DNA of 64,000 nt. It comes from Raja brachyura. Lineage: Eukaryota. Within the stretch, counting starts at the first letter, position 1. Every line of letters starts with the position of its first letter. The notes under the pieces are model-generated. The model saw only the letters and a list, made by a program, of their open reading frames with translations. It was not told the origin of the DNA and did not search any database. The stretch is from assembly GCA_963514005.1 (NCBI GenBank), contig OY740783.1:43214001-43278000 (forward strand). Direction: 5' to 3'. Positions 2,481 to 52,619 of this stretch are shown here, piece after piece. Both the position numbers and the translations under genes were made by a program.

Positions 2481-3125
2481 AAGATAGACACAAAATGCTG
2501 AAGTAACTCAACGGGTCAGGCAGCATCTTTGCAGAAAATGCATAGGTGATGTTTCGGATCGGGACTGAAGAAGTCTGAAGACGGGTCCCGACCCGAAGAA
2601 CGACTGGATAGACTCGGCATGTACTCGCTAGAATTTAGAAGATTGAGGGGGGATCTTATAGAAACTTACAAGATTCTTAAGGGGTTGGACAGGCTAGATG
2701 CAGGAAGATTGTTCCCGATGTTGGGGAAGTCCAGAACAAGGGGTCACAGTTTAAAGATAAGGGCGAAGTCTTTTAGGACCAAGATGAGAAAAACATTTTT
2801 CACACAGAGAGTGGTGAATCTCTAAAATTCTCTGCCACAGAAGGTAGTTGAGGCCAGTTCATTGGCTATATTTAAGACGGAGTTAGATGTGGCCCTTGTG
2901 GCTAAGGGGATCAGGGGGTATGGAGAGAAGGCAGGTACGGGATACTGAGTTGGATGATCAACCATGATCATATCGAAGGGCTGAATGGCCTACTGCTGCA
3001 CCTATTTTCTATGTTTCTATGAAACATCACCTATTCATTTTCTGCAGAGATGCTGCCTGAGCTGTTGAGTTACTCCAGCATTTTGTGTCCATCTTTTGTA
3101 AAAACCAGCATCAGCAGTTCCTTTT
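2481..3125. mobile_element. Penelope-derived inverted-repeat module with hammerhead core, interrupted by a CR1
   Basis: Left arm 2481-2565 is the reverse complement of the right arm, which runs 2572-2597 and resumes at 3021. Confidence 0.8.
2598..3020 (+). mobile_element. CR1 LINE 3' fragment, young
   Basis: YSLEFRRLRGDLIETYKILKGLDRLDAGRLFPMLG; (tttctatg)n tail; nearly identical to the last ~440 bp of the copy ending at 59733. Confidence 0.93.
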
Positions 3126-3451
3126 TATTACTTTTAGCAAGAATAAATTGGTGCAATATATTCATAGTGATACTGTTCACATTATTTTCTAGAAACTGTT
3201 TTTCCAGTGAGAAGAGGAGAATAATCTAAAATGGGCACATATTGAAAGAAACATATCAGCAGCTATAAAATTAAAAACAATATAATCTCCAAATATTTTA
3301 GCTAAATTGTTGACGATGTTAGTTATTATTTATCATTAATTGGATTTTCCACCTTAAAATGATCACCTACATAGAAGATGATCAATTTTATAATTATTTA
3401 TCATTTAACAGACTCAAAAGATGACACAATTTATTCTCCCATGGGACTTAC

Positions 3452-3745
3452 TTGGAGCAAGTGGTGTACGGAATGTGACTTCCTTGCTGTAGTCACTGTA
3501 ATTAGAATTCTTACACCCCTTCACTCTGAAGAGGTAGCTGCTGTTGATGTCGAGGTTGGTTATGACTTTACTTGTTCCGCTCACATCCTCGGTAGACTGC
3601 CAGACAGAGTCTCCACCTTGGTCAAGTTTCCTGTACTCGAGTTTATAGTGGTCGGCAGGAGGGGTGCCTTCGGGCTGCTGCCAACAGATGATTCCTTCGT
3701 CATACAGCCAGCTCTGCTTCTGGTCAATAATCGGTGCATCTGGAA
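3452..3745 (-). CDS. TRIM46: TRIM46/TRIM36-family exon: fibronectin type III domain (294 nt, phase 1 to 1)
   Basis: (V)PDAPIIDQKQSWLYDEGIICWQQPEGTPPADHYKLEYRKLDQGGDSVWQSTEDVSGTSKVITNLDINSSYLFRVKGCKNSNYSDYSKEVTFRTPLAP. Boundaries ttccag|TTCCA and A|gtaagt. Confidence 0.95.
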
Positions 3746-4084
3746 CTGGAACATTAGGCATGAGTTATTATTCCATGTATCGTTTACTCCAAGACAATGG
3801 TTGCTTCACCATAATGGTTGCATTATCCTAACTCACCCATATTACTCCGTCAGTACCTCCTAAACCCAAACCTCTGCTATCCAGAATAGCACGGGCGGCA
3901 AGTGCATAAGAAAACCACCCAACCATGTTCCCCTTGGATTTATATAGCTATTCCTTCATTGCTGCTGGATCTAAATTCTAGAACCTCTTCCCCAACACTA
4001 TTACAGAAGTACCCTCCCCTGAAGGACTGCAATGGTTCAAGAAGATAGCTCACCGCCAACTTGTGAAGGCCAATGAGGAATGGA

Positions 4085-4580
4085 CAATAAATGCTGATCT
4101 TGCCAGGACTAGAGGGTCTGAGCTATAGGGAGAGGTTGAGTAGACTGGGTCTCAATTCCTTGGAGCACAGGAGGATATGGGATGATCTTATAAAATGAGG
4201 TGCATAAAATCATGAGAGGAATAGATTGGGTAATGCACAGAATCTCTTGGGTAATGCACAGAATCTCTTGCCCAGAGAAGGGGAATTGAGGACAAGAGGA
4301 CATGGGTTCAAGGTGAAGGGGAAAAGATTTAATAGGAATCTGAGAGGTAACTTTTTCACACAAAGGGTGGTGGGTGTATGGAACAAGCTGCCAGAGGAGG
4401 GAGTTAAGGTTGGGACTATCCCAACGTTTAAGAAACAGTTAGATAGGTACATGGATAGGACAGGTTTGGAGGGATATGGACCAAGTGCAGGCAGGTGGGA
4501 CTTGTGTAGCTGGGACATGTTGGCTGATGTGAGTAAGTTGGGCCGAAGAATCTGTTTCCACACTGTATCAATCTATGACT
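4085..4580 (+). mobile_element. CR1 LINE 3' fragment, (tatgactc)-tailed subfamily
   Basis: RTRGHGFKVKGKRFNRNLRGNFFTQRVVGVWNKLP; contains an internal 21-bp tandem duplication. Confidence 0.9.
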
Positions 4581-5179
4581 CGATCTTGCCAGTGCCACCT
4601 ACATCTCAGAGAATTATTAAATAGAATTGATAGCCTTAAATCAATGGAAGGGAGATTATTGGAGAGATTCTCAGGGATAGGATCTACTCACATCTGGAAG
4701 AAAATGAACCTTTTAGGGATAGTCAGTGTGGCTTTGTGCAGGGGAGGTCATGTCTTACAAACTTGATTGAGTTTACTAAGGAGGTGTTGATGAAGCTTGA
4801 TGTGGGTATGGCCGTAGACATTGCTTTACAGGGACTTTAGTAAAAGTTTTTACAAACTCTCTCATTGATGATCAAGAAGATTAAGGCACATGCGAACCAT
4901 GGAGACAGTACTCTGGATTCTAAATTAGCTTGGCCGTAGAAGACAGGGGTGATAGTGGAGAGGTTATTTTGACTGTAGGATCATGGCCAGTGATATTCTA
5001 CAAGGAGTAAACTGTTGTTTCTGATATATACAAATGATTTGGATGAAAATGTAGATGGAAAGTTTGCAGACAACAAAAAAAAAATTGCAGTGAGGAAGGT
5101 TATCAGCAAAATGTAACCAGTTGGTGATATGGCTGGAGAAACTCCAGATAGAGGTTAATCCAAACATTGTATGGCGTGT

Positions 5180-6798
5180 GGGTACACAAAAGGCTGGAGA
5201 AACTCAGCAGGTGCAGCAGCATCTAAGGAGCGAAGGAGATAGGCAACGTTTCGGGCCGAAACCTTTCTTCAGACTGATGGAGGGTGGGGGGTGGGGGAGG
5301 GGGGCGGAGAGAAGAAAGGAAAAAGGAGGAGGAGGAGGCCGAGGGCTCAGGAAGAGTTGGGAAGCGGAGGAGACAGCAAGGGTTAACAGAATTGAGAAAA
5401 TTCAATGTTCAAGCCAAGAGGATGCAGACACCGCAAGCGGAATATGAGGTGCTGTTCCTCCAATTTGCGGTGTTGCTCACTCTGGCCGTGGAGGAGGCCC
5501 AGGACAGAGAGGTCGGATACGGAATGGGAGGGGGAGTTGAAGTGCTGAGCCACCAGGAGGTCGGGTTGGTTATTGCGGACCGAGCAGAGGTGTTTGGCGA
5601 AACGATCGGCAAGCCTCCGCTTGGTCTTACCGATATAGATCAGCTGGCATCTAGAGCAGCGGATGCAGTAGATGAGGTTGGAGGAGGTTTAGGTGAACCT
5701 CTGTCGGACCTGGAAGGACTGTTTGGGTCCCTGAAAGGAGTGGAGCGGGGATGTAAAGGGACAAGTGTAGCATCTCTTGCGGTTGCAAGGGAAAGTGCCC
5801 GGGGAAGGGGTGGAGCGGAGGGAAGGGAAGAATTGACGAGGGAGTTGCGGAGGGAGCGGTCTTTGCAGAAGGCAGACAGAGGGGGAGATGGGAAGATGTG
5901 GCGAGTGGTGGGGTCACATTGGAGGTGGCGAAACTGGCGGAGGACTATGTGCCGGCTGGTGGGGTGAAAGGTGAGGACCAGGGGGACTCTGCCCTTGTTG
6001 CGAGTGGGGGAATGGGAGAGAGGGCAGTGTTGCGGGGTATGGAGGAGACCCTGGTGTGAGCCTCATCTATAGTGGGGGAGGGGAATTCCCGTTCTCTGAA
6101 GAATGAGGACATTTGTGATGACCTGGTGTGGAACACCTCATCCTGGGAGCAGATGCGTCGTAGATGGAGGAATTGGGAATAGGGGATGGAGTCCTTACAG
6201 GAAGCAGGGTGGGAGGAAGAGTAGTCCAGGTAGCCATGGGAGTCAGTGGATGTCGGTCAGGAGTGAATCCCCTGCAATGGAGATGGTGAGGTCAAGGAAT
6301 GGTAGGGAAGTGTCGGAAATGGTCCAGGTGTATTTGAGTGCCGGATGGAAGTTGGTGGTGAAACGGATGAAGTTAGTCAGTTGAGTGTGGGTGCAGGAGG
6401 TGACACCAATGCAGTCGTCGCTGTAACGGAGGTAGAGGTCGGGGATGGGGCCCTGGTACGCCGAGAACAAGGATTGTTCGACGTACCCGACAAAGAGGCA
6501 GGCGTAGCTGGGGCCCATGCGTGTGCCCATAGCTACGCCTTGTATTTGGAGGAAATGGGAGGAGTTAAAAGAGAAGTTATTGAGGGTAAGGACCAACTCC
6601 GCTAGGCGGAGGAGCATGTCAGTGGACAGGTATGGGTTGCTCCTATGGTCGAGGAAGAACCGGAGGGCTTTGAGACCATCCTGGTGGGGGATGGTGGTGT
6701 AGAGCGAGTGGACGTCCATGGTGAAGATGAGAGGATGGGGGCCTGGAGAATGGAATGCGCGGAGACAACAGAGAGTGTCTGAGGTGTCTTGAATATAG
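5180..6798 (-). mobile_element. Penelope-like element, 5'-truncated: RT remnant plus terminal hammerhead module, 12-bp TSD
   Basis: ORF 6243..6815 has PLE-type RT motifs MDVHSLYTTIPH, GVAMGTRMGPSYACLFVG, YLRYSDDC and LPFLDL. Perfect TSD tgtatggcgtgt at 5168-5179 and 6799-6810. Confidence 0.92.
5243..5275 (-). ncRNA. Minimal type I hammerhead-ribozyme motif in the Penelope terminus
   Basis: Minus strand agt-CTGAAGA-aaggtttcggccc-GAAAC-GTT-gc; stem II has a mismatch and stem I is very short. Confidence 0.55.
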
Positions 6799-7624
6799 TG
6801 TATGGCGTGTTGCACCTTCGGAGTTCAAATGTAAGACAAAAGTATACAGTAAATGGCAGAACCCTGAGGAGCACTGATTTACACAAAGATTTTGGAGTAC
6901 AAGTCCATAGCTCTCTGAACCTAGCAACACAAGTGAACAGGGTGGTAAAGAAGGCATAAAGCATCCTCACCTTCATCGGGCAGGGTGTTCAAGATAAAAG
7001 AAGGGACGTTTATGAGGTTGCATTTGGAGCATTGTGTACAGTTCTGGTCATTACATTACAGGAAGGAGAAAGAGGTTTTGGAGAGGGTGCAGAAGAGGTT
7101 TACCAGGAATTTGCCTGGATTAGTGGGTATGAGCTATAAGCAGAGCATGGACAAACCTGGATTGCTTTCTCTGGGGCATCAGATATTGAGAGGAGACCTG
7201 ATCGTATATAAAATTATGAGAGACATAGATAGGTTGGATACTCAGTTTTTCACCAGAGCTGAAAGGTCAAATACTGGAGGTCATAGCTTTATGATGAGTG
7301 GGGGAAAGTTGAAAGAAGGTGAATGAGACAGTTTTTTTCTTACATTGAGAGTGGTAGATACCTGGAACACGCCGCCAGATGCAGTGGTGGAAGCAACTAC
7401 AATAACAATGTTTAAGATACATTAAGACATGAAGTGGCAGAGAATTAATTATCAGTTTGCAGTTTAAGTTGGCGTCATAGTCAGCACAAACATTGTGAAC
7501 CAAGGGGACTATTCCTGTGTGGTACTGTGTTTTGTTCTATCTAAAATATACATATATGAATATACAATGTTCCTAATAATTAACAATACAAGAGAGCCAC
7601 AGGGGAACTGCAGAATGATTTACC

Positions 7625-7710
7625 AAAAGTGCTGGAGTAACTCAGTGGGTCAGGCAGCATCTCTGGAGAACATGGATAAGCAACGTTTCGGGTCAGGAAC
7701 CTCTTCAGAT
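7625..7710 (-). mobile_element. Penelope-derived terminal module with hammerhead core
   Basis: gctggagtaactcag...caacgtttcgggtcaggaacctcttcag. Confidence 0.75.
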
Positions 7711-10700
7711 ACATGTTTGGGAATACAAATCAATAATGCAATTCTCTTTTCTTAACTATGGCTTCTAATTAGATTTTCTGTTAGACAAGAATGTAAGAAG
7801 TAATCCTATGAATTGACTGAAGATAATTAAAACTTCTTGAAACACTCTGTTTGAACCTGCATAACATCCAGTATTGTTGATTTCATTAATATTAAATTGG
7901 AAAAGCAATTTGTAAAATGGCAAGATTTAAAATCTGAATTACATGAACAAAATAAAGCAAATTCAATTAAAGAGACCTGTAGCTTGCAAAATGCACATCA
8001 GTATTCATCAGACAGCACAAACGTAACTAGTTTTAGAAGATAAATTAGTGCTCAAGGTTAACAAATGGGACACAAAGAGCTTCCTTCAGTCTGTGCCAAC
8101 ATTTCAGTGGGCGCATTTATTAAGTGGTGCAGTAATAATCTATTCTGACACAGAAGGTCTGAGCTTTGATTCTTGATTTTTAATGTGTTTCCTCAGGGAT
8201 TTTAATGGGTCGGGAGAAAAAGAAACATCACACATCTAGAAAGTATTTGATTTTTTTTAAAGTATCTACTGAATGAGAATCGCACCAGACCCAGCCATTT
8301 ACCAGACATGTGTGCTGTTGATAATGTTGCTACCCTGATCCTCAATAAATCTGCGTCATCCTACATTCCCACGAGTGAATACCGCACTGGACAAAGCTAA
8401 GATTAAGTTAAGGATCACCAGAGGTAAACATTAACCTAAACAGGGCGATTGTAGAAAGGCCTGTGAGTTAATGCAGGGTGTGGATCCACTGTAGGGGCTA
8501 CTATTCTGATAATGATAACTTGTAATGTAACTACCCTAAAAAATCTTGTGATCAGGCATAAATATATGGGGCAAGAGGCACCTACACTGCACAGACTGAA
8601 GAATCAGACTTAAAACGGTGTTTAAAATGATGGCCATCTCATTGGGCCCACTAAAAAAGTAACTTTGCTTGATTATTAAACTTGAAGAAAGATTCAAGGT
8701 CATTCAATGCCAGGAGCTGGTCTTCCCTGGAAGGTTGCTATCAGCACCTGGGCTTATCTCCCAAACCACTGCCAGGGAGTCCAGCAGTGCCCTTCTCATA
8801 ATCTCCATTATCCTTCAGTATTTATCCAACACCAGCCCACCTCTCTCCTTGCCATATATTAACTTGCCTCTACCTCAACAATCATCTCTTCTCCCCCTTC
8901 CTATCATATCCTCTCCAATCTCTCAATCTTCCCCTGAGGCCTTCAATCTCCCCAATTCCCTGAAGCCTGCTTTCTTCTGTCCGATCAAGTCATTCTTTCA
9001 CCTACCAAACCTACCACACACCTCACATGATCATCTCCAACACCTTCCCCCTGCCCAATCACCCTTGCTCTTTTCTCCCCTACCCCTCCACCCCGGCCCC
9101 TCTCCAATCTTCCTTACTATTCCCAAGTGATTGAATCCAAAAACAGCCTTCAATCTTCCCCACACCATTCTTCTTTCTCCATCACTCTGGGTGGTGACAA
9201 CAACAAAGTCAACCACACACTTTGTGTGCAAGGTTGTAATTGACAGTTCTAACATGTTCAAATCTTTGGGCATCATGCTGTTTATGTTTTGGAACCTTGT
9301 GGACTTTTTCAAATCTAGAATGGAACAAACATTTGCCCATCCATCGTTTCACAAGAGGTGAAGCATTCTAAACCACCACTGTATTGGAAGAACCAAGAAT
9401 GGTCTATCCCATCACCTCTGCTACATTAGCTCAGGGGGGCATCTGGAGGGAGGTCCCAGCAAAAGTCTAATAGTCTCCACTGTAACAATAAGTACAAAGC
9501 ATATACTGAACTAAAGCAGCTCCAACCAACAGCCAAAGATAGTGTTTATTTAGCTTATTATTACTGTCACATGTACTGAGGTACAGTGAATAAACTGCTT
9601 CAATGAAAGTAAATATAAAGGATGCCGGAGGGTTCAATAAAACATAGAAACATAGAAAATAGGTGCAGGAGTAGGCTATTTGGCCCTTCGAGCCAGCACC
9701 ATCATTCAATATGATCATGGCTGATCATCCAAAATCAATATCCCATTCCTGCTTTCTCCCCAAAAACAGCAAATAATCAAAATACTCAGCAGGTCAGGGA
9801 CATATGGAGGGAGAAACAGGACTAACATTTTTAGGTCCATGGCTTTCTGCTTTAGAACTAAATATTAGCCAGACTGCAATGTTTCATAAACTAAACCATA
9901 TCATCTTCCAACTATGCACAAGGGTACTTTGGCAACAAATCTAGTCGCTGTCATGAGAGGCTTTTGGACTTTGAAATTTCATTTTACGACAGGAAGGATG
10001 TTGCTACAATTTGAATATCATATAAAATGCGAGGAGCTCAGAAACTACCAGTGGACTTTAAGTGCATCTAAGTACAGAACATTAATATTTTAATTTTTTG
10101 TACAATCAATGCATTATTTAAAAGCCACTCAGTTCCTGAATTCCAGCTCCAAAGGCACAAAGTGCAGCTTAATAACATCCTGCCTCAGCAGCAGCCATTT
10201 CCATGGAGACTGAATCTGGCCTAAATGCCTCATTTATCATCACTCTTAATGCAGTTATTGATCTATTAGAAGTAAGTGAAGCTGACCATTAAGCTACCTA
10301 CAGACTGTTGGAGTCTTTGCCAGTATCAATGAAACTAACATTATATTATTTATTCCACTGCTATCAAACACAGATGTATTATTGTTTAACTAAGAATGGA
10401 TTTAACCCAGGGCATCAAGGAGATTGGCAGCTTTCACAGGTATAATGGACTAAATTTACTAACCCAGCATGCAACGAGGAAGCACAGAACTTCACGGGGA
10501 AAATTGTAGAGCCAACTGCAAGCTGAATCATCTGTGAAATGATTCATTAATACAGAGACAACACCATCACAAGACAGTTTGTTTTTCTGCTTGCTTCATG
10601 CATCATCTGTGTTATGGTTACCCACAGATTTTTCAAGTCAACAATAAATGTTCACTAGGGGTAGGTTGTTGAAAAGTTCAGAAATCTTCTCTGTCAAGTT

Positions 10701-14365: not shown

Positions 14366-14777
14366 AAATAATTCAAAATGATACAAAACATTTAAAGTCT
14401 TCATTACGTCATATAGAGCTGTAACATCCTGATAGGTAATTACCAATTCGCAGAGAGACAAATGGAGTTGTGGAGCCCCTGGCATTCTAAAATGCAACAG
14501 GATTAGTTCCCAGATTTCCCCTGGGGAATGGCAGGATGGTTAGTGTCCCACCTCCACAAGGTGTCCACTGACAAAACGTGGTGACAATGACAAGGCACTC
14601 TCAGGAGGCAATTGTGTGAGTGGCCCTCTGGAGGGATTTAGATGTCAAACTGGCCCTTCCCACAGAAATGGCATTCATAACACTGGTGTAGTTCCATTCT
14701 CAGTCTTGTGGTGGCTCTACATCATCACTGCTGTTGGGTGGCTACAATTAAGAGTAAGGCAAGTCTATATTGACGGT

Positions 14778-14872
14778 TACACAAAAAGCTGGAGAAACTC
14801 AGCGGGTGCAGCAGCATCTAAGGAGCGAAGGAGATAGGCGACGTTTCGGGTCGAGACCCTTCTTCAGACTGG
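14778..14872 (-). mobile_element. Solo Penelope terminal module with the best-preserved hammerhead core (14838-14870)
   Basis: Minus strand agt-CTGAAGA-a-GGGTctcgACCC-GAAAC-GTC-gc; almost identical to the Penelope terminus at 5182-5275. Confidence 0.8.
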
Positions 14873-16404
14873 TGTGGATATATTGACCATTTCCAATGTT
14901 AACATGGAAATAAGAATTGATAACGAAAGTAGAGGATTGTTATTGCCAATATAGCTTGCTTTGATTATTTTCCACTCAGCCTCAATTTCACACGAGTCAA
15001 GCTTAGTCTTCACTCATCGTGTTCGAATGCCAAAGGGAATGGGGAATTAATTTACATAGATCATTTTAAATTCAAAAATGATTTGTGACCACATTAATTA
15101 ATGAGTGTCAGAAATACCACTGTTTCCTATCCAACAGTCTCCTTTCTCCAGTCTTACGTGACATCAGATTAAACGAACAGAGCATTATATTGGTGGACAG
15201 AAAGGAATGTGATGAATAACTATATAATGGTTTCAATGGAGGGATTGGGACCGGTGATCTGAGGATAGGACATCCTCGCTTTTCAAGTTGAAGAAGCCAT
15301 TTGGATACAGCAACAAAGTTACTAATAGGAGAGTTTGCTGACAAACAGAAGACATTGCAAACCTTGGATGTCACTCTAGGGTTTGCTGGAGTTTGGACAT
15401 AGGTTAATAGAGTGAACAGTTTGGTGGCAAAAGCAGTTCAACATGCAGTAGTATATTCTGTAATTCATTATACCCCTAATAGAAAGAATTGTTGAGCCAC
15501 TCCATGAGATGGGAAGATCAGAGCCACCAAAGGCAATAGAACAGAGACTTGCCATGTGTAGGCTAAAAGGCACAAAGCTTTGTCATTTGCATGAAATGCA
15601 CTGGACAGCCCACTAAAAGGATGCTTTTTTTCTGATTTGCTGCTTCCAATCTGGTGGAGAGGATATCTAGGTCGGAACCCATCCTGAGAAGTGGAGAAAG
15701 TTAGATTATTGCAGAATGGTAAAGAGTCCAGTCAATGGCTGTCAAGATCACAATGTTTGAGGCTGTACCATCAGACATTGTATTTTCATTCTTCACAGCT
15801 CCACATGGTAACCAAAGTATTCCACAATTGGTATCCAACTTCCATTGTTATTGGGTTTTCGTGCTGAATATGGAACAGTTCCAAACTTAAATACACCAGA
15901 GTCATTGATTACCATTAGAGCTATACCACAATAACAACTTTGAGTTGTTTGCTTGAAGTAATGAGGAACTGAAATAATTAGGAGAATGGATTGCAGGAAT
16001 GGAACAAATTCTGTCCTCATCAGCATCAAGTCCTAATCAAACCAATGACTGTGGGTCAGATGCTATGGCAATGAGCGGATCCAATACTACTGAATGAGAT
16101 CAGATTCCATTTGAATCAATAGACTGAAGCTGAATCTGAGCTCCTGTGTATAGATGATACACACTTGTGGTAAATCATTTAGTGAGATGGTCTCCCACAT
16201 GACTATATTGTGGAATAAAGCACAAAGCTGAAATAAAATCCATTTGAAGAATCGCTTGACTGAAACGCTTTGACACAAAATTTCCTGTCAAAACAACAGT
16301 GATGCCAATGGCACTTAGTGCTGTTCATGAGATGTTCACACAGTGACATCAGGCAAGGCCAGATGCACAAATGCAAATATCCAAAAGCTGTCACGTGTCA
16401 AAGG

Positions 16405-16497
16405 CAGACGCAAAATGCTGGAGTAACCAAGCGGGACAGGCAGCATCCCTGGAGAGAAGGAAAGGATGATGTTTCGGGTCGAGACCCTTCTCAGACG
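16405..16497 (-). mobile_element. Penelope-derived hammerhead module, core mutated
   Basis: aaaatgctggagtaac...gatgtttcgggtcgagacccttctcagac. Confidence 0.75.
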
Positions 16498-18120: not shown

Positions 18121-18122
18121 CC

Positions 18123-18482: not shown

Positions 18483-18489
18483 TTCTCCG

Positions 18490-31735: not shown

Positions 31736-31798
31736 AGAAACATACATCTACCAATGGAGACGTGGCTCACACACTTTAAATTCAAACAGATAAGCATC

Positions 31799-31992: not shown

Positions 31993-32159
31993 TGTTTAAT
32001 ACTCAGCCACCCATTGAAAGGCCTTCCTAAATATTACACCTGGACAGACCTTGAAAATCAATAGTCATGGGTCCATTCCTCCTCCTCCTCACTCCCCAGC
32101 TGAAATGTAACCACAGGCCTTAAGGTTTTTCAAGTGAGAAGTGGGTAGCCAGAACTATA

Positions 32160-37459: not shown

Positions 37460-37534
<75 letters not shown>
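37460..37534 (+). repeat. (TATC)n tetranucleotide microsatellite
   Basis: Perfect run of about 18-19 units. Confidence 0.97.
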
Positions 37535-37535
<1 letters not shown>

Positions 37536-37639
37536 ACCTTCCAGTTTCCATTGCTATCTCTACTCTTCCATCCCCCACCTGACTGTTATTTTCCAATCAA
37601 CCCCGCCTCACCTATATTCACCCACCACTTGTGTAGGAG

Positions 37640-37818
37640 GTAGACACAAAATGCTGGAGTAACTCAGCGGTACAGGCAGCATCCCTGGAGAGAAGGAATG
37701 GGTGACGTTTTGGGTTGGGTCTGGAGGAATGGTCTCGGCACAAAACGTCACCTATTCCTTCTCTCTAGAGATGCTGTCTGTCCTGCTGAGCTACTCCAAT
37801 ATTTTGTGTCTACCTTCC
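37640..37818. mobile_element. Penelope-derived inverted-pair module inside an older related element
   Basis: gtagacacaaaatgctggagtaactcagc ... gctgagctactccaatattttgtgtctac. Confidence 0.78.
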
Positions 37819-38992
37819 ACCTATCACATTGCTGGCTCCTATCACGACCCATTCCTTCTCCTCCTCTTTACACTGGCTACTTGCCCTCCGATCTCTCTTG
37901 AAACATTGGCCCTCAATAGATGTTGCCAGACCCACTGAGACCGTCTAGCAGCTCTCCTTTTTTGGTTCCACATTCCAGCATCAGCAGTCTTGTGTGCTTT
38001 GACCAAGTTTGCATTCCACTACTGGGCTCCAGGGATTCGAAAGGGAGTCATCATCAAAGAACAGTCCACCAAGTTGGTACTTTTACTCTCCCTTGAGAAA
38101 TCCAAACTTGGTGGCACACACGTTGGGAAATTCCAACAGTTTCCTGCAAAATCCAACCCATAATCTAGTCATTTACATTATTGCATATGTATAAATTGCA
38201 ATTCCTTACAACAGTAACTACAGTTAATTTGTGTTAACTGCTTTAGGAAGGAAAAAACTATTACTGAAAGTTTTTCTTTTAGCTGGTCAGAAACCCTTCA
38301 AATTTGACATCAATGACCTTTCATCAGTTAATGAAAACTGCAAGTTTAAAACCTGAAATAAGCAGGGCAGGCTTCATTCGTTCATTTCCAACACATTCAG
38401 TTTTCATAGGTCTGTGATCAGAAGAATAATGCCTGGGGAAATAAGATTCCTCACTACATTAAAGGTTTCATGTGGAGGTCAACATTGACATAGTGCCAAT
38501 GCAAAATAGAGTTGGGGCTCCCAACTCAAAATGAAGATTAGTATTAAGTACAAGAGTACTTAATGACTCAGCTTAACATAGATAGGCTACAGCCTTGTAA
38601 TTGTTGATGTCAGTGTTGTGATTAAAACTAATCATTTGAAATTCTTCTGGGTAATTTTATTAAGGGTGTTATCCATTTATAAGGTATTGTGCAATTAAGG
38701 GAGTTGCCTATTTAAGAGCTGCATTGCAATAAGGTTAAATGTACCTTTGGAAGGCAGCATGTCATGTGAAAGAGATGCAAGGTGCCTTGACATGAATGTT
38801 ATGGGATGGACTCAGCTTCAGAATTTCCTGTCAATTTGGCCATTGCTACGAATATTACTAGTTGAGCAAACTACATACGGAAGCAGAATCCCGAAGAATA
38901 TAACTGCCAGTAAGGATGGTAGCCACAAGTCACAGATAGAGGGAGCAAATTTGTATGACAGTGCTACAGTGATCAAACTCCGAAGAGATGAA

Positions 38993-39148
38993 TGGACACA
39001 AAGTGCTGGAGTAAGTCAGCGGGGTCAGGCAGCATCTCCGGAGAAAAAGCATGAGTGACGTTTCAGGTCAGGACCCGAAACGTCACTCATCATTTTACCC
39101 CAGAGATGCTCCTTGACCTACTGAGTTACTCCAGCACTTCGTGTCTAT
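38993..39148. mobile_element. Penelope-derived inverted-pair module
   Basis: gacacaaagtgctggagtaa...gagtgacgtttc / gaaacgtcactc...ttactccagcacttcgtgtc. Confidence 0.8.
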
Positions 39149-40774
39149 GTTTGGGATAGACTAATGGATAGACTAAATAGTGCTGAATGTAATCCACTGC
39201 ACATGCAAGGAGCATCATAACAACAGTACATTCAAGGCCCACTGTATCCAATGAGAAAGCGCCTATGAATATACGCTATAATACTATGCCTTTGTAGGCT
39301 AGAATTTATATGGGAAATACTGCAGGCTCTTTTCATTTATTACATTTTTCAAAAGGGAAATAATATAATTTGTTAGTGTCTCTTTAAGAACAGAGTGCAC
39401 CATCATTGTACCAGACACCGCCTGCAATAATGGTTGTTCTGTTGGTCGCTCTGTCATTAGCTCTAGTGACCAGCAACATGAAAGAGCCTCGAGGCACACG
39501 GGGGATGTTAAGCAATTAAAATAAATAGGTTAATACCTCTATTATCAGAATTTTATGGGATATCAGCATCTATCTAGTTACTGGTAGCATTATCATTCTT
39601 ATCCAGGCATATATTTGGCTGCTGCTGACATCAGCCCATGTTCTGTTCGTGCTTTCGACTGAAATGGATTATCTGCTTTCTCCTGTTGCTTCAAAGAATA
39701 TTACATTTGCCAAAAACAGTAAAGCAAATGCTACAGGGCTACCACATTCTCTGGGTTGCCCCCCGCAGTGAGAATGACAGAGGACATTTTACTGAAAACG
39801 ATCCTTAACAAAGCAGACTGCAAGCTGCTTACGGAGTTAAGAAGCGTACTGAAAATAATCTGCATATTTTTTTCCTCTTTGACACCTTTGCATTACTAAT
39901 TGAAATAATACTTTGGTGATTAATTGATGCTAAGTTAAAACTTACACTAATTAGAAAGTGTTGGGCACATTAACCATGGTAGATAAGTACACAACAGAGT
40001 AGAATTAGTACCAAATAATTGTATCTAAACACACAATGGAACTACCACAGAGAAATACCAGGATCAGACAGATTTTTTAGAAAATGTGATTCTGCACTAT
40101 TCGATGCAGAAAGACATTTAAAACTAGAAACTTCCATTTCATTCCCTTTCCATGGATACAGCCGGACCTGTTGTGTTTTCATATTTTTGAGTCAGTTATT
40201 CAGCATTTATAGTTCTTATTTGCATTTTGAGTGAAGATAAAATTACTGTTCTTCCTTTCTGACAGGAGGACGAAGGAGCAGTTAAATTGGAATGAGTGAT
40301 TTACCCACTCTTTTCCAATCAGACCCACTGCAACCTAACACCTCTTGTAGTATTTATAGCATTGAATCAGGTGATTGAAAGAAGATGGATCCTACTTAAT
40401 ATTTCAGTGAGGATATCAATGCTGCAACATAACACTAACTTCATGAATGAGAGAGTTCTGAGTATACCTGCAGCTGGCACCAGACCCATGGCACAAGGGC
40501 CACCGACTAAAATAACCTAGGATTAGTTAAAAACTATCCAGAGTCTGTCCAAACTCCTTGCAGACCAACAGACGTGTCCCAGAAAAGAGTCATTGGGCTC
40601 TCTGATATCAGTAATCAAAGGATTCCTGTAAATCCTAAAATCTGGCTTTCCACTGGTCATGATGGGCCTAGACCAACCTGATCCCAGTCTGCCTCCTACC
40701 CACTGCCACAGATGCTCAGCCACAAACTCCTGTTGCTACATTCCTGTTCTCACCTGGCTGGCAAGTAGTATATT

Positions 40775-41248
40775 GACCTTTATGTCCTGGGCCTCCTCCA
40801 CAGTCTGAGTGAGGTCCAGTGCAAATTGGAGGAACAGCACCTCATATTTCACTTGGGCAGATTACACCCCAGCGGTATGAATATTGACTTCTCTGACTTC
40901 AAGTAACCCTTGGTTTCCCTCTCTGTCTATTCCTCCCCCTCCTAGTTCTCCAACCAGTCTGATTGTTTCCCTGATTACATTTTATCTCTGTATGCTCCGA
41001 TGTCACCTTCTCCTTGCTAACAATGATCCATTCTCCATTTTCATTGAACTACACCCCCTTTCAATGTCTCATATTCACACCTCACCCTTCCTTATCTCAG
41101 TATCTTCCTCTCCCCCGACTCTCAGTTTAAAGAGCGTCCAAAACGTCACCCATTCCTTCTATCCATAGATGCTGCCTGTCCCGCTGAGTTACTCCAGTAT
41201 TGTGTGTCTATCTTTGGTTAAACCAGCATCTGCAGTTCCTTCCTGCAC
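40775..41248 (+). mobile_element. Penelope-like 3' fragment
   Basis: tcctgggcctcctcca...aattggaggaacagcacctcatattt is shared with 32290-32400 and, on the minus strand, 5410-5510; terminal module present. Confidence 0.82.
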
Positions 41249-42609: not shown

Positions 42610-43889
42610 GGTAAGTGTTCCACGTTACATCATTCCATGCCATGTTCCCTTTACTTCAGCATCTTGAACATAGTTGAGTCAGGGGATATGGGGAGAAGTC
42701 AGGAATGGGGTACTGATTGCGGATGATCAGCCATGATCACATTGAATGGCAGTGCTGGCTTGATGGGCCGAATGGCCTACTCCTGCACCTATTGTCTATT
42801 ATCTATTGTCAATCTCATCCCAGGATGAGTAAAATGGGAATAAAGAGTTAAGCCCTTGTGAACATAATTTCTTATCTACCAATGTGGTTGATAAACTACC
42901 CTGTGCTGCTGTCTAAAAGCAAAGTTGTGATAAATGCTGCCTTGCTCATTATTCCAATTAGCCGTTTACATCGATGCCCTCAGTAATATTGTTTTACATC
43001 CAATCCTGGACTAGATCATAACCAGATCGATATGCACAGTGTATTGCAAGTCCCATAATTCCATTACTGACAGGTGTTGCTGAATCAGCTGGTAGATTTA
43101 TATCAAGTTAGAGTATGAAACAAAATCCATTTAGGAGAAGACAAAGCATTCGTGTCCCTCAGTAACAAAGGACGGAATCTAATTACTGTCAGAGGCAAAG
43201 ACACAAATTGCTCTGTTTTAGTTCAGGCCATGCATTGAGTCTGAAATTTATACAATTCACAATACTGTCATTGTGCAAATTAAAATAACCAATTCAATTC
43301 CACTAAATTTGAGAAAAGTGCTTTTAACCAGATATAAATATCTTTGTTTTTACACAGAGTGGTGAGCTCATTTAGTTTGCCTCTTGTGTTCCCCCTGAAC
43401 ACCCAGGCATGGCCTTTGCCCCCTAGTTCAGATCTTGGACACTGTTGCACTTGAGCAGACCCCTCTCTCCATCAAGTGGCAGGGCTGCAACCTCTGAACG
43501 GTGAGACAGGAAACCTCACAGAAATATTTAAACAATACCGTTTCTGGCATATTGGACCTCAACATAAGCCTTAAAATGATCTTCTTTCAAAGGTACCAAT
43601 ATTTTAAGTCAGAAAAGGAATGCAATTGAACATCACTGGATCCAACTACTTTCACCGAGTGTCCAACTGCAGCTATTGATGAGTAACACCGACCCCACTC
43701 ATCACTAATCCAAATCCTTTGACCTAATGAACAGTTTTTTTTAGTTTTGGGCAAGGAATTTTAAGAGAAGTGGTGGAGACCTGTAGTGCACCTGTAGTTG
43801 AGATATCACTGTATTTTTCACTTGTGGGCACTGTGATGCAAACTTCAGTTGTGAGAAGGGCACCAGGATTGTTGTTGCACATTTGTAGA

Positions 43890-44090
43890 AAGGAACTGTA
43901 GATGCTGGTTTATACTGAAGATAGACACGACATGCTTGAGTAACTCAGTGGGTCAGGCAGAATATCTGGAGAAAAGGAATGGGTGACTTTCAGTCTGAAG
44001 AAGGGTCCTGACCAGAAACGTCAGTCATCCTTTTTCTTCAGAGATGCTGCCTGACCCGCTGAGTTACACCAGCACTTTGTGTCTATCTTT
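43890..44090. mobile_element. Penelope-derived inverted-pair module with near-intact hammerhead core (about 43990-44025)
   Basis: agt-CTGAAGA-agggtcctgacca-GAAAC-GTC; arms aagatagacac ... gtgtctatctt. Confidence 0.8.
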
Positions 44091-44934
44091 TGTTGTTGCA
44101 CATTTTCAGTATTAGATGTATGGTCCAGTAGTCTGGTCTGGGGCAGGGTTTGGGGAGCATGGGAGATAGAGTTGCATTAGCCAGTTGCTGTATGGCTAGT
44201 CAGGACTTATGCAGTGGGATGAAATGACCAGAAAAGTTGCATAGGAAATGATCTCTTCCATCCACAGTAATTCTAATCTTGCATCGAGATGCAGAGTTGA
44301 TACACACTCAGAAACACTGTGATGGATTTTTGCAGTGATGTTAAACAATCTGGAACGAAGCACATTATTGTGCTTCGCTTCAGAAGACAATAACTTTTCT
44401 CAATTGCATAATGCTGAAAAACAGAGCTGTGCAAATTGAATTTCCAGGCAAGTGAGTCATCCAGATGATGACTGAGTTCTGATGGCTGGTAAAGGTCCAG
44501 CAATAATATATTTTCTTCCTTCTGAACTTGATCAAGCTGCTCTAAGGTTTGCAAAACTCTCTGGTGCATGTAGATTAAAGAACGCTGTTGCAGATTAAAT
44601 TCATCATCAAATAAGAAACAGAGGAATAGCTTCAAATACATTACTTTGACTATGCTAGTCTTGGTTATTCTCTTGGGCTTGAAGTGAAAACTACTGTTGA
44701 ACCACCAGTCTGAAGGAAGGATCTCAACACAAAACGTCGCCTGTCCATTCAATCCCCAGATGCTGCCTGACCTACTGAGATCCTCCAGCACTTTGTATTT
44801 GCCTCCATAAAACTATTGTTATTGCAAACACATCAAATGATAGAGAATGGAATTGTGCCTTTCAGTAGATCCAGTGTGCTGAGTTTTGTGTGGATTGAGC
44901 TATATGCCTCCACTAAGGATCTTACACTTTATTA

Positions 44935-45575: not shown

Positions 45576-48019
45576 CTACTGTACTGTACTACAAATCCTG
45601 TACTGGAAGTACTGACCACTTGGTGGTAATTAATAACACTCACATCTTTTGCTCTCTAATGTTTTCTCTTCTCATATGGGTAGTGCATCACTTTTCACTG
45701 CTTTTTTTGTGGTTCCAATGACAAATGACTTCTACTACAAGTACATGAAAAGCCATTTTCATCAGCTGAGACATAGCCAGATGTGACGTTCAGTACTTCA
45801 GTACTCCACATCATACATCACTAACATGCAGTAATATCTGAAAAGTAAATGTCTTGTTTTTAATTTAGCAAAACTCATTACAACCGAGGCTGTATTTGCT
45901 ATTTGGAAAGAAGTCCCTAAATTCCACAGTGAGAAGAAGAAAACTTTCAAATTAGCTCATTGCTGAGGCAAAGACAGCTGATACATTGATACCAGGAAAC
46001 AATTGTATTCATTTAAAAGCAAAATTGCAACCACTATTGAAGAAAATAATATCTAAAAGCCACTTATCTGCCTTCACCACCACCCCTGGCAGTGTGTTAC
46101 AGGCACCCACCACTCTCTGGGTAAAGATCTTGCTCCACACATCTCTTAAATTTTGCCCCTCCCACCTTCAAACTATGCCCTCTAGTCTGTGACATTTCCA
46201 CCCAGGGAAAAAGATTCTGACTGCCTACCATATCTATGCCTCTCATAATTTTACAAACTGCTATCAGGTCTCCAACATTCCAGAGAAAACAATTCAAATT
46301 TGTCCTACCTCCATATAGTTAATACATTCTAATCCAGGTACTATATAAATATGAAGCTGAGAACAAATTCAATTTATTATGTGATATGCTGTTACATTTA
46401 GATTATGACTCAGTATAACTTACTTAACTTGCCCCAAGATTAATATGTCCTTCATAAACTGAGGCATCGATCTGAGTGCAATATTCCAAATGCGTCTCAC
46501 TGGCATTTATGTAACTGTAACAGGACTTTGTTATGAAAGTATTCTGTGGGAATAGTCTTCATGGGAAGCCAATCAGAAGACAACATATCTACCAAAGCCA
46601 TTTACCCCATCCGTTTAAAAAAACATTTTCCAGCTTTTGTAATAATTTATTTTGCTGCTCAAAGATTACCTACAAATATAATATTACTTCAGATCAATGT
46701 TCATAAAATGTTAGGCAAGATTTTTTTATGTAGCCATCCCACAGCCTTTGATATGCCAGAAGACTTTGATCAAACATGAACTTCGTTCTCAAGGAAATTG
46801 AATTGTTAACCTCCACACTAATTATCTAAATTGCAGCTGTTCTTTCATGAAATTTGAACGCCCCCTTCACCAGCATGTCTCACAAAAAATAAACATGCTA
46901 ATTACCATCTTGCAATCATCACATTGTCAATGTTGATTGTACGACCATGAACATTGCTTCTAAATAAACATTGACTGTCATATTTGTTCCTTGTTTCGAA
47001 TTTATCAGCTGAAATTTCCAGCAATAGATTAATGGTATCATTGTTCCACATGGAATATTCGTCCAAAGGGTTAGAACCCACGGGATTCAAGGCACGTTGA
47101 CAAATTGGATTCAGAATTAATTTAGTAATAGGAGGCAGAGGATGATGGTTGAAAGTTGTCTTTGTGATTGGAAACCAGTGACTAGTTGTGTATAACTAGG
47201 ATCAGCCCTGGAACTCTTAATGTTTGAAATAAACACATGAACAATTTAGGCGTAAATATAAGATGTGCAACCAGTAAATTCACAGATTACATGAAAATTG
47301 GTGGTGTCATTGATTGTGATAAGAGTAGCCTTGGTTTGCATAATAATATTGATTAATGATAAGATGCGCAGACCAGTGGCAGATGGAACTTACTTCTGAA
47401 ATGTCGGAGGCAATGTATTTTGAAAGGGCTATCAAGAGTAGATACACAGGACACATAAAAGGCCAGAATGGACACCATCAGGTCCTGCCGCGACTTACCC
47501 TAATGCAAGTTCAGATGTGCTCCCCTTACAACTCTCCTCTGGACTGGAAAGATATGTGTATTTTAGTCGGCACTTGTTTGCAAAGTTAATATAAAAGAGG
47601 TCCAGGGCAATTACTAAAACATCATGGAATCTATTCTAAAAATACATGCTGCAAATTGTGATAGGTATATAAGATGCAAAACCTACTCAAATGTTATGGG
47701 GCAGGTATTTGCATAATTATTCAAAGATTCAAAGGTCTTTGAATAATTATGCAAATACCTGCCCCCACAACATTTGAGTAAATTCAAAGATTCAGTTGGA
47801 CATTTGGGCAGACACAAGAAACAGCTGTCTTGTGAATCCAAAATAGAGCACATCCAAACCTTGAAAGATTGAAGATTTCTACGCATTATTGCATCTAATT
47901 TATATACATTGCAAAACCATTTGATTTGTCCCAACAGGTCCAAGTCAGTGTTTATGCTGAATACATTTAAATTAAGAGTATTTGTGTAGAAGATGAAATT
48001 ACAAGATGAGGGTTTTTGA

Positions 48020-48845
48020 AGGTAGACACAAAAAGCTGAAATAGCTCAGCGGGACAGCAGCATCTCTGGAGAGAAGAATAGGGTGACGCTTCGGGTCAAG
48101 ACGCTTTTTCAGCAGCCCAAAATGTCACCCATTCCTTCTCTCCAGAGATGCTGCCGGTCCCACTAAGTTACTCCAGCTTTTTATGTCTATCTTCAGTTTA
48201 AACCAGCATCTGCAGCTCCTTCTTACACATGGGAGTTTTTGAGGTCAGTATGTTTTCAAATCAACTCGTAAACTGGCTGTAGAAATAAAGAACTACAGAT
48301 GATGGTTTATATCGAAGATAGACACAAAGTGCTGTAGTAATTCAGCAGGTCAGGCAGCATCTCTGGAGGAAAAGGATAGATGGCGTTTTGGGGCAAGACT
48401 CTTCTTCAGACTGTAGGGGGATGGGAGGCTAAAGAGCTGGTGGTGAGAAAAGACCAGATCTGATAAGGGCCAGGAATAAATGACCTCGAGCAGGGTGGTG
48501 CCCTGGAAGGCCCGTTGTTTGCTGGGGAAAGTGTGATCTCAGGAGGGAATGTGGTGAACTGTGGAACTGGTTAAATGCCTAGGGTAGTGGAAGGGGGAAA
48601 GGGGGGAAGGGAGGGGTGTAAGTAGAAGTTACTTAAAATTAGAGAATTCAATCATGACCCGAAACATCATCTATTCCTTTTATCCAGAGGTGCTGTGTGA
48701 CCCACTGAGGTACTCCAGCTTTTTATGTCTATCAATGTTCATACCACTGGGTTGTAAGCTCCCTAGTGACCATGGGGTGCTGTTTCTCCAATTTGTATAT
48801 GGCCTCACTCTGGCAATAGAGGAGACCCAGGGCAGAAAGGTCAGT
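48020..48845. mobile_element. Cluster of Penelope-derived modules: inverted pair 48020-48230 and longer remnant 48285-48845
   Basis: Repeated gacacaaa..gctg..gtaa.tcagc and gttactccagc arms; PLE 3' sequence gctgtttctccaatttg. Confidence 0.75.
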
Positions 48846-51339
48846 ATTTGTGGAAAACAAACCTAGCATTGGAGAAATTAACAAGATTGAAAAGCAGATA
48901 CATCCCCGGGATCTGATGACCTACATACAGGATTTTGGGGGAGAGAAGTGTGAAAATAATGAAAACACTATTTGTCATCTTCAAATTCCTCGTGATTCTA
49001 AAATCGTTCCCACAGATTGGAAGATAGCTGATATAATCCCACAATTTAACTAAGGGCTGAGAGGAAACAGTGAACTATAGACAATTTGTCTGACATTAGA
49101 AGAGATAATATTAAAACTCATTTTTACTGATGTGCCAACAAAGTAATAGGAAAATGATAAAAGAATTGTGGAATGCCAATGTAGAGTCAGGTTTGGAATA
49201 CCCATTGGACTTGTTTGAGAATGTAATAGGCAGATAAGAGTAACTAGTTGATGGACTTTCAGGATGCCTTCAGAAAGGTGCATGCAAGAAATGATTAAGC
49301 AAACTTAGAGCATATGGCATTGGGAGTAATGCTGGAGTGGATTGAGAAATGTGTAATGAACTGAAAATAGACAGTAAGAATAAAAATCATTTTAGAGTTA
49401 GGAAGCTGTGATCAGTCATGTGTCACAGGTATCAGCGCAGGGGACTCATTTGCTCATAATCTATATCAATAGTTTGGGTGAGATAATTATTTCTAAAAAT
49501 AAAATTTGCATTAAACTTAAATGTATGTGCAAGTTATAAATAGTACCACCACTAATGGTAACCCTGAAAATACTGATATCTGTGGAAAACCAACCTGGTT
49601 CACTCTAATATCCTTCAAGGATTTGGCCTGGCCAGATCCACCAACGTGACTGACTTTTAGCTGCCTCTTCGATTCGGGGGCAATTGGGTTTGAAGAACAA
49701 CGGCAGATGTTGCCAGCAACACCCATATACCATGAAATAATAAATTAAACTAATACAGCAGTAGATGTGTACAACCAAGGGGAGGAACATCAGGACAAAA
49801 CATTAGAAGCTATCGTTTCTACTTTGAGTCACTAATCATTTAGAACATGATGAATAGTGTAGATAACTCACATTAACTCCAAACCTGTATTAAGCCACAA
49901 AACATTAAGGACACTTTCCAACTTTAGGATTTATTACCAAATCTAACAAGAAAGCTTGTGTCTTGAACTGATCTCTCCATCCACACTCTCCCACCCCAGC
50001 CGACAAACAAACCCGTCTTCATTTTCCAGTTGGCTCCATTACATGGAAGAAAAACACATTGCACAACAGGCCCATTTATTCCTTTTCCACTTCATAAATA
50101 CTCCTCGTTACCCTGCAAGGGATTTTATGGAACTTCAATTTTATGGCGTATTCAAATTGAGTATAAAATAATAATTCCAAACATCATGATGGTGTGCAAC
50201 ATATATTTACTAAATGTAACCCTTGCTGCTTCAGAAACCAGATTAGTATTTCCACAGGCAGTTTCGTATTGTAGGGTAATTTAAAAAAACAAATGTAATT
50301 TTAGATTTGAATTTGGACAAAGCTTTATTTCTCAGGTCAGCGGATAATGATATTGCAATATTGAGGATAATGATACAGCCAGAATTAGTTGTCAAAGGAG
50401 AATCGGGCTCAATTTAACTTCCATTTCCCAGTGGAAAAGCGGAACTAACCCACTTTGTGTTCGCACTAACCTGACCAAAACTAATTGTGACTGATAGCTG
50501 TCCGAAATAGGTAAGATGCAGTTATTGAAAAGGTTAATCTGATGATTCACCACGCCCACCAGCTATTTTCCTCGAAGCAGAATGCTGGTGGCTGGGCTTC
50601 CAGGCTCAAGCTGTAGGGATTTCAATCGGGCTGACGTGTACATTGGTTAATGTCTGACAGATTTCCATGGCCTTCAGCTGGCCTGAATGTACATCAAACT
50701 ACCCCAACCCTCTCCATAATAATCGTGAGTAACCAAGCATTCAGTGGGTTCCTCTGATGCCATGGATCGCTCCATGGAGCTCGTGACAGCCACCATGCTG
50801 CTCCATTTTAATTAACACATAACTGTTCCACACCAATTTCCATCTCATTTTGGATCAGTTAGTAACGAGGCTTGGTCGTAAATTTGGCTGAGGTCCCACA
50901 TAAGATGGGTTATTATCTGGTTCAACTATATTGACAATACGGCCAAGAAAATATTTCAAAGCCTCTGTCCTCAGAAAACTGAGGAAAATTGATGTCCCAA
51001 ATGACTCTGACCATTTTCCATCGATGCACCGTAGAAAGCATTCTATCAGGATGCATTACAGTTTAGTATGGCAATGGCTCTGCCCAAGACTGCATGGCAC
51101 TGCAGAGAGTCATGAGCACAACCCAGTTTATCACACAAACCAAACTCTTACCCATTGACACCATCGACATTTCACACTGCCTCGGAAAAGCAGCCAACGT
51201 AATCAAAGGCCATTCATACCCCAGTCATTCCCTCTACTCCCCCTCCCGTCAGCCAGAAGATACAAAATCCTGAGAGCACACACCACCAGATTCAAGAACA
51301 GCTTCTTCCCTGCTGTTATCAGTCTCTTGACTTGACTTG

Positions 51340-51940
51340 CATGGAAACATCGAAAATAGGTGCAGGAGTAGGCCATCCGGCCCTTCGAGCCAGCACCGCC
51401 ATTCAATGTGATCATGGCTGATCATCCACAATCAGCCCCGTTCCTGCCTTCTCCCCATATCCCTTGGTTCCTCTAGCCGTAAGAGTATCTAACGCTCCTT
51501 TGAATGCATCCAATGAATTGGCCTCCACTGCCTTCTGAGGCAGAGAATTTCACAAATTCACAACTCTCTGGGTTAAAAAGTTTTCATCTCAGTTCTAAAT
51601 GGCTTACCCCTTATTCTTAAACTGTGGCCCCTGGTTCTGGACTCCCCCAACATTGGGAGCATGTTTCCTGCATCTAGCTTGTCCAATCCCTTAAGAATTT
51701 TATATGTTTCTATAAGATCCCCTCTCATCCTTCTAAATTCCAGTGAATACAAGCCCAGTCGTTCCATTTTTTCATCATATGACAGTCCCGCTATCCCGGG
51801 AATTAACCTTGTGAACCTACGCTGCATTCCCTCAATAGCAAGAATGTCCTTCCTCAAATTAGGAGACCAAAACTGCACACAATATTCCAGGTGTGGTCTC
51901 ACCAGGGCTCTGTACAACTGCAGAAGGGCCTCTTTGCTCC
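51340..51940 (-). mobile_element. CR1 LINE 3' fragment
   Basis: ORF 51573..51962 LLQLYRALVRPHLEYCVQFWSPNLRKD. Confidence 0.92.
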
Positions 51941-52619
51941 TCACATACTTCTCACATACCAAGGATATATTCCTGATCTTTCAATCAACCTCATTGTGGC
52001 ACTTGCCCTTTTTTCACCTGCACTTTCTTATAACTGTAACACTATATTCTACAAACACAAGCAACTGCAGATGCTGGGTTACTGAAAAAGACACAAAATG
52101 CTGGAGTAACTCATCAGGTTCGGCAGCATCTCTGGAGAACATGGATAGATTATGTTTCAGATAGGGACCATCCTTCAGAGTGATTGTAAAAGGGGTGGGA
52201 GAAAAAGTTTGGAGGGGATGTCAGAAGGTGATTCATATCCAACATGATACTTAGGCTCTGATCTGCCCATTAGGTACACAGTAGCTGTGAGCTTGGTCCA
52301 GTTGAGTTTCCAGACAATGTTGAGCAGGCACCCAATCAATGGTGGGGGATTTGACATTGGTAATGCCATTGGATGCCAAGAATAAGTAATTTGACACTCT
52401 CTTGCTGGAAATGTTAATTGGCTGGCAGTTTGGTGGTGTGAGTGTTAGTTGTAATATGTCAGTCCATGCTTAATTGTTGTTTAAGTCTAGTTGAATGCAG
52501 GCATGGAATTTTTAATTTGTTCTGGTTTAGGTTTAGATTTATTAATATCACATGTACTCAGGTACCGTGAAAAGCTTTATTTTGCATGCTATCCAAATTG
52601 CTCAGATATGCCACCTGAA

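Follow-up and report, generated by a model that had tools for sequence, protein, structure and literature searches.

Modules of a Penelope-like element at the TRIM36 locus

We analyzed a stretch of 64,000 nucleotides from the skate Raja brachyura (GenBank assembly GCA_963514005.1, contig OY740783.1, positions 43,214,001 to 43,278,000 of the forward strand; hereafter the window, in whose coordinates positions are given), which contains a family of short modules that derive from Penelope-like elements (PLEs) and carry a minimal hammerhead ribozyme motif. The host gene is TRIM36, identified by top matches from sharks and rays, on the minus strand at 3453-58072 (exons at about 58072-57728, 55490-55335, 54983-54882, 30097-29840, 24517-24395 and 3746-3453). 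An iterated nhmmer search seeded with the copy at 14766-14875 yielded 35 matches within the window (top E ~3e-25), and with a core-only head at 2572 we scored 36 copies, 20 on the plus and 16 on the minus strand. All 18 positions at which a preliminary description, made from the sequence alone, had placed the unit coincide with a module copy or head, and the minus-strand copies are, as it had stated, intronic and in the sense of TRIM36. The dense family of that description is real as far as the repeats go, but their density is ordinary (29 matches across the 64 kb of the window; loci chosen by position gave 145 over 330 kb); extrapolated to the genome, module density gives ~1 million copies. 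The 28-mer core has 50,608 exact genomic matches and the reversed pattern none, hence its recurrence is far above chance. Intactness of the recurring core is nevertheless limited: all core nucleotides are present in 5/36 copies, and all core nucleotides plus 4/4 stem II pairs in only one.

That copy (14774-14870, minus strand; core 14840-14867) is the youngest solo module, with a short 3' end and 98% identity to the head of an intact element. It lies in a TRIM36 intron in sense orientation and is flanked by a 9-bp target duplication (14766-14774 and 14879-14887). As the preliminary description had noted, the module also terminates two longer PLE copies. The first (5180-6798, minus strand) is 5'-truncated, with the C-terminal part of the reverse transcriptase (RT), which matches RVT_1, a zinc-finger linker and GIY-YIG in broken frames, ends in the module at 5180-5276, is 91% identical over 1441 bp to the intact element at locus L072, and has a 14-bp target duplication with one mismatch. 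The second (32161-32593, plus strand) is an older PLE 3' end, 76% identical to an intact element, in which a GIY-YIG fragment and a pyrimidine tract precede the module at 32502-32593.

Seven sites in the window hold head-to-head pairs, an arrangement absent from the preliminary description. The pair at 43886-44089 consists of a tailed minus arm and a short plus arm within a single 16-17-bp target duplication and folds as a long hairpin (z = -8.6); that at 24008-24244 has a 13-bp target duplication with one mismatch. At 48016-48230 a short minus arm faces a tailed plus arm, at 38990-39150 the centres overlap and no full core remains, and at 2481-2600 the plus arm has shrunk to the head at 2572. 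Two decayed pairs, at 30165-30372 and 37637-37817, were searched for target duplications and none was found. The remaining copies are single. On the plus strand lie a solo module that begins at core U4 and has a 13-14-bp target duplication (29574-29667), a solo module with a broken core (23709-23792), one of an old subfamily (44704-44797), a tailed module 3' of PLE 3'-UTR-like sequence (41137-41242), a head-less module (48652-48728) and a head-less tailed module beginning at GAAA (3020-3127). Minus-strand copies are a solo module of an older subfamily (7620-7709), one with a broken core (16408-16496), a tailed module (48283-48413) and a tailed module of an older subfamily (52059-52182). The plus-strand cluster at 31798-31995 comprises a decayed head duplicate (31803), a module (31830-31928) and an older head-less module (31928-31995). 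The stem look-alike at 31803 was considered as a subfamily of its own and rejected: its stem variant matches the genome only six times, and it represents a duplicate, now decayed, of the head that immediately precedes 31830.

The parent element

With the RT fragment at 6243-6824 as query, many close relatives were found in the genome, some with frames of more than 1,000 residues. Three loci (L071, L072 and L079) are arranged as pseudo-long terminal repeat (pLTR), open reading frame and pLTR, and the first two hold a frame of 1203 residues. The intact unit measures 3,971 bp, and its one frame joins RT to a C-terminal GIY-YIG domain, with the motifs DKG and YIDD, a CxxxxCxxC linker (CNRKRCYTC, residue 1070) and YIGET (residue 1120); the Pfam matches to RVT_1 and GIY-YIG are weak (E 3e-4 and 1.5e-3), under the curated cut-offs. 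Partial tandem pLTRs, inverted copies and an optional 30-40-bp tail, the marks of a PLE, are all present. A zinc-finger-like CX2-5CxxC linker before GIY-YIG marks Neptune elements, which share it with Nematis (PMC8557442), and the skate element, an endonuclease-bearing (EN+) PLE, appears by its linker motif to be of Neptune type. The module corresponds to the first ~130 bases of the element from the hammerhead onward, starts 163 bases 5' of the first ATG and is repeated at the 3' end. The window modules are dispersed, decaying copies of the pLTR head of autonomous PLEs. A contig (C890; loci L344 and L345) that had been considered as a tandem PLE array was rejected as such, being a 4.27-kb tandem satellite with PLE 3' ends and solo modules.

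Ends of young copies

Ends were counted in 148 young copies selected by a 35-mer 3' of the cut site, so that presence of the ribozyme was not required; the RT-selected loci L051-L090 were excluded, and C3 of the core is numbered +1. The 5' ends pile up at the ribozyme edge: 79 lie at -6 to +3, 39 copies extend at least 40 bases into the pLTR, and the others end at -39 to -7 (7), +4 to +27 (18) or +28 to +30 (5), with a minor cluster at the foot of stem II (+18 to +23; 6/148). In a separate count, copies that start at the predicted cut site (109) are not in excess of those that start four bases further on, at control position +33 (112); no pile-up exists there, and the template RNA was therefore uncut. 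The 3' ends of the 148 young copies fall mainly into two classes, short in 96 copies (~+94) and tailed in 41 (~+130), with 11 others. Genome-wide, 9,886 of the 50,608 exact 28-mer cores match 10 nt further upstream, while identity is lost just before -2 in 6,473 and just before -1 in 9,709.

Target duplications flank 44/81 solos, compared with 1.2% in shuffled pairings. Any filler between the duplication and the module is short and differs from copy to copy, without a constant 5' exon. A hand count of the first 100 rows each of the -2 and -1 listings showed that G precedes the start in 48/100 (background 36.5%, p=0.012) and 60/100 (33.5%, p=5e-8), respectively; it also does so in 17/27 solos that begin at -1 (p=0.002). 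In RNA contigs, depth over the module merely tracks copy number. At L101, L209, window 31798-31830 and the joints in run X19, the first 28-36 bases are repeated before the module, often with G between; these duplicated heads would fit a polymerase that arrived at the 5' end of one RNA and then jumped to another.

Head-to-head pairs

Single target duplications enclose 24/29 pairs. One arm is short and the other tailed in 28/29 rows, one row being unscorable; two rows represent one duplicated insertion, hence the rule holds in 27/28, with P ~7e-11 under independent draws. Variants common to both arms number 11, compared with a shuffled mean of 1.6 and a maximum of 5, which indicates that both arms usually come from one source. 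The centre is an exact near-palindrome in 11/29 pairs of this partly selected sample and in 1,042 pairs genome-wide, and junctions vary between insertions. We also observed pairs in which 15-150 bases of unrelated filler separate the arms (L110/L111, at G000:C1:1207515-1207796, and L078:9108-9124).

The hammerhead and its predicted fold

By sequence the motif is the minimal type I PLE hammerhead that the preliminary description had recognized, with CUGANGA, GAAA and UH, an extra base after A9, G10.1-C11.1, a palindromic ACGU in place of stem III, and a location in the pLTR. Minimal hammerheads are known from solo and inverted PLE ends, and the form of the pLTR motif has been defined (PMC4209133). 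The core is complete at 14840-14867 in the window and invariant in the majority sequences of seven subfamilies. Rfam, scanned over the window in line with the search for hammerhead models that the description had suggested, returned no hammerhead family; its matches were miRNA-like hairpins at the pairs, attributable to chance. The two conservation signals named there fared differently: among the seven subfamily majorities 0/16 columns of core and stem II differ, compared with 10/18 just downstream, although columns further on are conserved as well (see Discussion), while covariation in the stem is not above shuffles on 34 copies (149-408 of 500 shuffles reach the observed value). A one-sided change of a stem pair from U-A to U-G occurs in 5,585 copies. 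The variant CUGAUGA was rejected as a subfamily, its 767 matches being scattered and having mixed stems.

In contexts of 98 and 136 nt, the probability that stem II forms is predicted to be at most 0.01, and a helix between the tail and the 5' strand of the core is predicted with a pairing probability of 0.98. In the tailed head at L072:2740-2875, the predicted fold is closed by pairing of the tail with the core 5' strand and the conserved AGAUGCUG. Each of the two RT start sites is situated immediately 3' of a predicted helix, and the pairs of the fold are conserved, without covariation.

Oligo(A) at the predicted cut site

Five copies (L312-L316), all pLTR-linked and with different sites and flanks, have an insert of pure A precisely at the predicted cut, A3 in four of them and A6 in the fifth. 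At four control positions no pure-A insert was found (0, 0, 0, and 2 duplications). Inserts of 2-12 bases of any composition number 16 at the cut site, of which four are A3 and most others local duplications, and likewise 16 at a control, where essentially all are local duplications; single-base inserts number 9 at the cut site, none of them A, and 0 at the control. Four A's joined to the cut site irrespective of the upstream sequence occur 5 times versus once, counts that are too few. The test was designed with two of the five copies already known, and a single master could account for all four A3 copies. These rare scars give a hint that the ribozyme may sometimes cut in living cells. Two further fusions meet the first base after the cut site, one of a poly(A) signal with an A12 end (L307:1460-1520) and one of an internal PLE piece with A4 (L306).

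A 66-bp tandem derivative

A repeat with 66-bp units, arranged head to tail and made up of the module from GAAAC onward, has 29,361 exact junctions in the genome and none in the window. It retains GAAAC, the palindrome and the cut site, and lacks CUGANGA and stem II. The arrays are young and dispersed (L090, L126, L134, L137, L144 and L372-L401; e.g. G000:C1:2395117-2395944) and often nested in older modules. Divergence from one natural unit is 1.5% across 54 units, taken from the 12 arrays that have inner units. Among 13 arrays examined, five begin with an old head and four finish in an old tail, ends fall at varied phases, and no target duplication was found. Since the repeat keeps the palindrome and the cut site, it could be cut in trans in a dimer geometry; the simpler explanation is an ordinary minisatellite that expanded through conversion.

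Other repeats in the window

Other abundant, truncated repeats with RT-like frames occur at 2595-2980, 19877-20645, 33759-34771, 51573-51980, 58324-59726 and 61836-62290, among others; they resemble CR1/L2-type LINEs. A (TATC)n microsatellite lies at 37460-37535.

Discussion

With a probability of roughly 0.72, we interpret the modules as run-off cDNAs primed inside the element's own uncut RNA, with twin priming in the case of pairs. RT would initiate in the head of a unit-length RNA, within ~95 or ~130 bases of the 5' end, and run off that end just before the hammerhead, giving solo modules; on an RNA longer than one unit, initiation in the 3' pLTR would give ordinary truncated copies. For pairs, both target nicks would prime the two start sites on one RNA and the products would join at the centre, an origin that we somewhat favor. 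Such a scheme has a precedent in vitro: with Poseidon_Ac of Anolis, RT starts at two internal sites that bound the tail, both nicked strands are extended, and uncut RNA is the main substrate (PMC11167929). It is also described that the tail is often at one end only and that inverted PLE copies occur (PMC8557442, PMC3846280).

Whether the 5' pile-up marks a transcription start we judge to be evenly balanced. Initiators follow the consensus YYA+1NWYY, and CCAGTCT at the pile-up would fit it; the excess of G before the start would then reflect cap-linked or untemplated addition of C. As for the ribozyme, selection would keep it in master elements only, where the predicted pairing of tail and core would mostly hold it off and it would cut rarely. 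Inserted solo copies would have neither the upstream promoter nor a dimer partner and would be inert.

Several observations weigh against this account or narrow what its evidence can carry. Most of the 148 young copies lie within the initial 4.3 Mb of contig 1, their 5' ends scatter across ~9 bases, and the genome-wide 28-mer counts pool solos, pair arms and other subfamilies. Solos beginning at -2 show no excess of G (8/21), and pLTR truncations are an invalid control for the G excess on account of subfamily indels. At variable sites, up to four pairs have discordant arms. Conservation is not confined to the ribozyme, given that 28/36 columns at +51 to +85 are also invariant among the subfamily majorities and 8/36 differ; at the level of copies, mismatch is lowest in the core (0.052, versus 0.078-0.099) and highest in stem II (0.141), so that decay is uneven. 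The lack of covariation above shuffles counts here as well, and the predicted tail-core helix has a z of only -1.4. Finally, in subfamilies 6, 7 and 9 (94 copies) an endonuclease remnant is found in none within 500 nt and in one each within 1,500 nt, and the RT-selected loci L071-L090 inflate the endonuclease linkage of cluster 1. In older subfamilies an autonomous parent was seen only sporadically, and non-autonomous masters may have operated there.

The strongest competitor accepts the PLE origin and explains the 5' pile-up differently, as the result either of a structure or bound protein that makes the polymerase stall at the edge of the ribozyme, or of a splice acceptor (pyrimidine tract and CAG). 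The predicted helix of the core 5' strand with the tail and the minor cluster of ends at the stem II foot are consistent with stalling. A splice acceptor would have a parallel in D. virilis, where helix I coincides with the end of an intron (PMC4209133) and the start site is found 46 bp 5' of that intron (PMC2377424). The fillers, however, are short and each different, without a constant 5' exon, and the extra G or GG suits run-off at a true RNA end. We regard stalling or splicing as a serious possibility, though the less probable one.

Pairs could instead arise by fold-back self-priming at the CAG-T-CTG near-palindrome, with resolution by the endonuclease setting the shorter arm. Variants shared between arms and the exact palindromic centre of 1,042 pairs would be expected from such a process; self-priming has been proposed for inverted PLE junctions (PMC3846280), and the tail has been ascribed to endonuclease resolution (PMC8557442). 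Yet 18/29 centres deviate from the exact palindrome, many of them with filler DNA, and short-primed copies make up 70% of non-pair copies (78/111) while short/short pairs number 0. Later work traced the tail to two RT start sites and found both strands extended in vitro (PMC11167929). Fold-back is the less probable origin of the pairs, for which we retain twin priming.

A more far-reaching scenario joins the rarer observations and would make this genome a fossil record of the entire PLE cycle. The hammerhead would sit at the 5' end of a capped mRNA, locked by the tail and cutting now and then in vivo, with oligo(A) scars where the polymerase bridged pieces; a 66-nt parasite, reduced to the palindrome and the cut site, would rely on PLE hammerheads to cut it in trans and, once circularised, would multiply by rolling-circle copying to ~29,000 junctions, as a retrozyme that has no ribozyme of its own. 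We consider this scenario speculative and improbable as a whole.

Still less probable, for the window copies, is the proposal of the preliminary description that the unit spreads alone as a retrozyme-like, non-autonomous element through cut and circular RNA. In its favor, upstream PLE sequence is missing from most young copies, a linked endonuclease remnant is rare in older subfamilies, the tandem 66-bp derivative spread recently, and vertebrate retrozymes are described as derived from pLTRs (bioRxiv 10.64898/2026.07.22.740005). Tandem units each with a complete hammerhead, together with linear and circular monomeric RNAs in vivo, would define a retrozyme. Among the 148 young copies, however, head-to-tail arrangement occurs once, as a partial head duplication, and young copies span the cut site uncut, 5' ends there not exceeding the control. 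Their 3' ends are the two fixed PLE ends, with heterogeneous junctions, and identical variants occur in solo, pair and pLTR-linked copies. Non-autonomous spread has partial support elsewhere, in the 66-bp tandem derivative, but that repeat, of which the window has no copy, is missing the enzyme half of the ribozyme (CUGANGA and stem II).

That sense copies are latent self-cleavage sites in TRIM36 pre-mRNA, as was also suggested, is very unlikely because a single core (1/36) is intact and strand bias is absent (16 vs 20, p=0.62). The intact core (14840-14867) does lie in an intron in the sense orientation, but the predicted probability of stem II in its context is <=0.01, minimal monomers are reported as inactive in vitro (PMC4209133), and a lizard PLE ribozyme required its protein (PMC11167929).

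Motif and insertion shapes are already known, and the finding as first stated is ordinary. The skate motif shares with the minimal hammerheads of Cervera and De la Pena (2014, PMC4209133) the CUGANGA box, the extra base after A9, G10.1-C11.1 and the palindromic 15.2-16.2 without loop 3; there, too, motifs are mostly solo, with some opposite-strand pairs, and fish Xena, Poseidon and Neptune elements carry them. The skate stems (4 bp for stem II, 2-3 bp for stem I) are shorter than in the schistosome families of that paper, and the 50,608 exact cores compare with ~2,000-9,000 motifs per genome reported in it. Insertion units of EN+ PLEs (PMC3846280, PMC8557442) likewise show partial tandems, head-to-head inversion, a 35-nt tail at one end and target duplications of 9-19 bp; unlike them, skate insertions are mostly the ~95-130-nt head only, and their 5' limit falls sharply at the edge of the ribozyme. 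Where these papers speak of a tail "often only at one end", the short-plus-tail rule is put in numbers here. Poseidon_Ac (Frangieh et al. 2024, PMC11167929) agrees in the two internal RT starts that bound the tail and in uncut RNA as main template, the ribozyme being dispensable for insertion. Its frame begins in stem II, whereas that of the skate element begins 163 bases after the core and has a zinc-finger linker; and where PMC11167929 reports that no RNA reads were found at the cut site, the skate has five genomic copies with oligo(A) there. Non-LTR retrozymes (PMC7229834; bioRxiv 10.64898/2026.07.22.740005) share the PLE-related hammerhead, and the 66-bp derivative resembles them in being both tandem and dispersed. 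Unlike them, the window copies are not tandem, and the derivative has no complete hammerhead and so falls outside the retrozyme definition of those papers. A search for literature on skate or shark Neptune elements, PLE twin priming and trans-cleaved PLE minisatellites returned none describing these points, with most subscription papers outside it; oligo(A) cut-site copies and the 66-bp tandem derivative were likewise not found in print, though Fig. S2 of PMC11167929 or the tables of the 2026 preprint may show some of the patterns.

The role of PLE hammerheads in vivo and the formation of inverted pLTRs are questions addressed by PMC4209133 and PMC11167929. Tens of thousands of near-identical young insertions, together with intact elements, permit counted tests of both in the skate. 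The counted results are uncut RNA as template, one source for both arms of a pair with a fixed split into short and tailed, and few scars at the predicted cut. Should both the scars and the 66-bp parasite be borne out, the skate would provide genomic evidence that a PLE ribozyme cuts in vivo and is used in trans.

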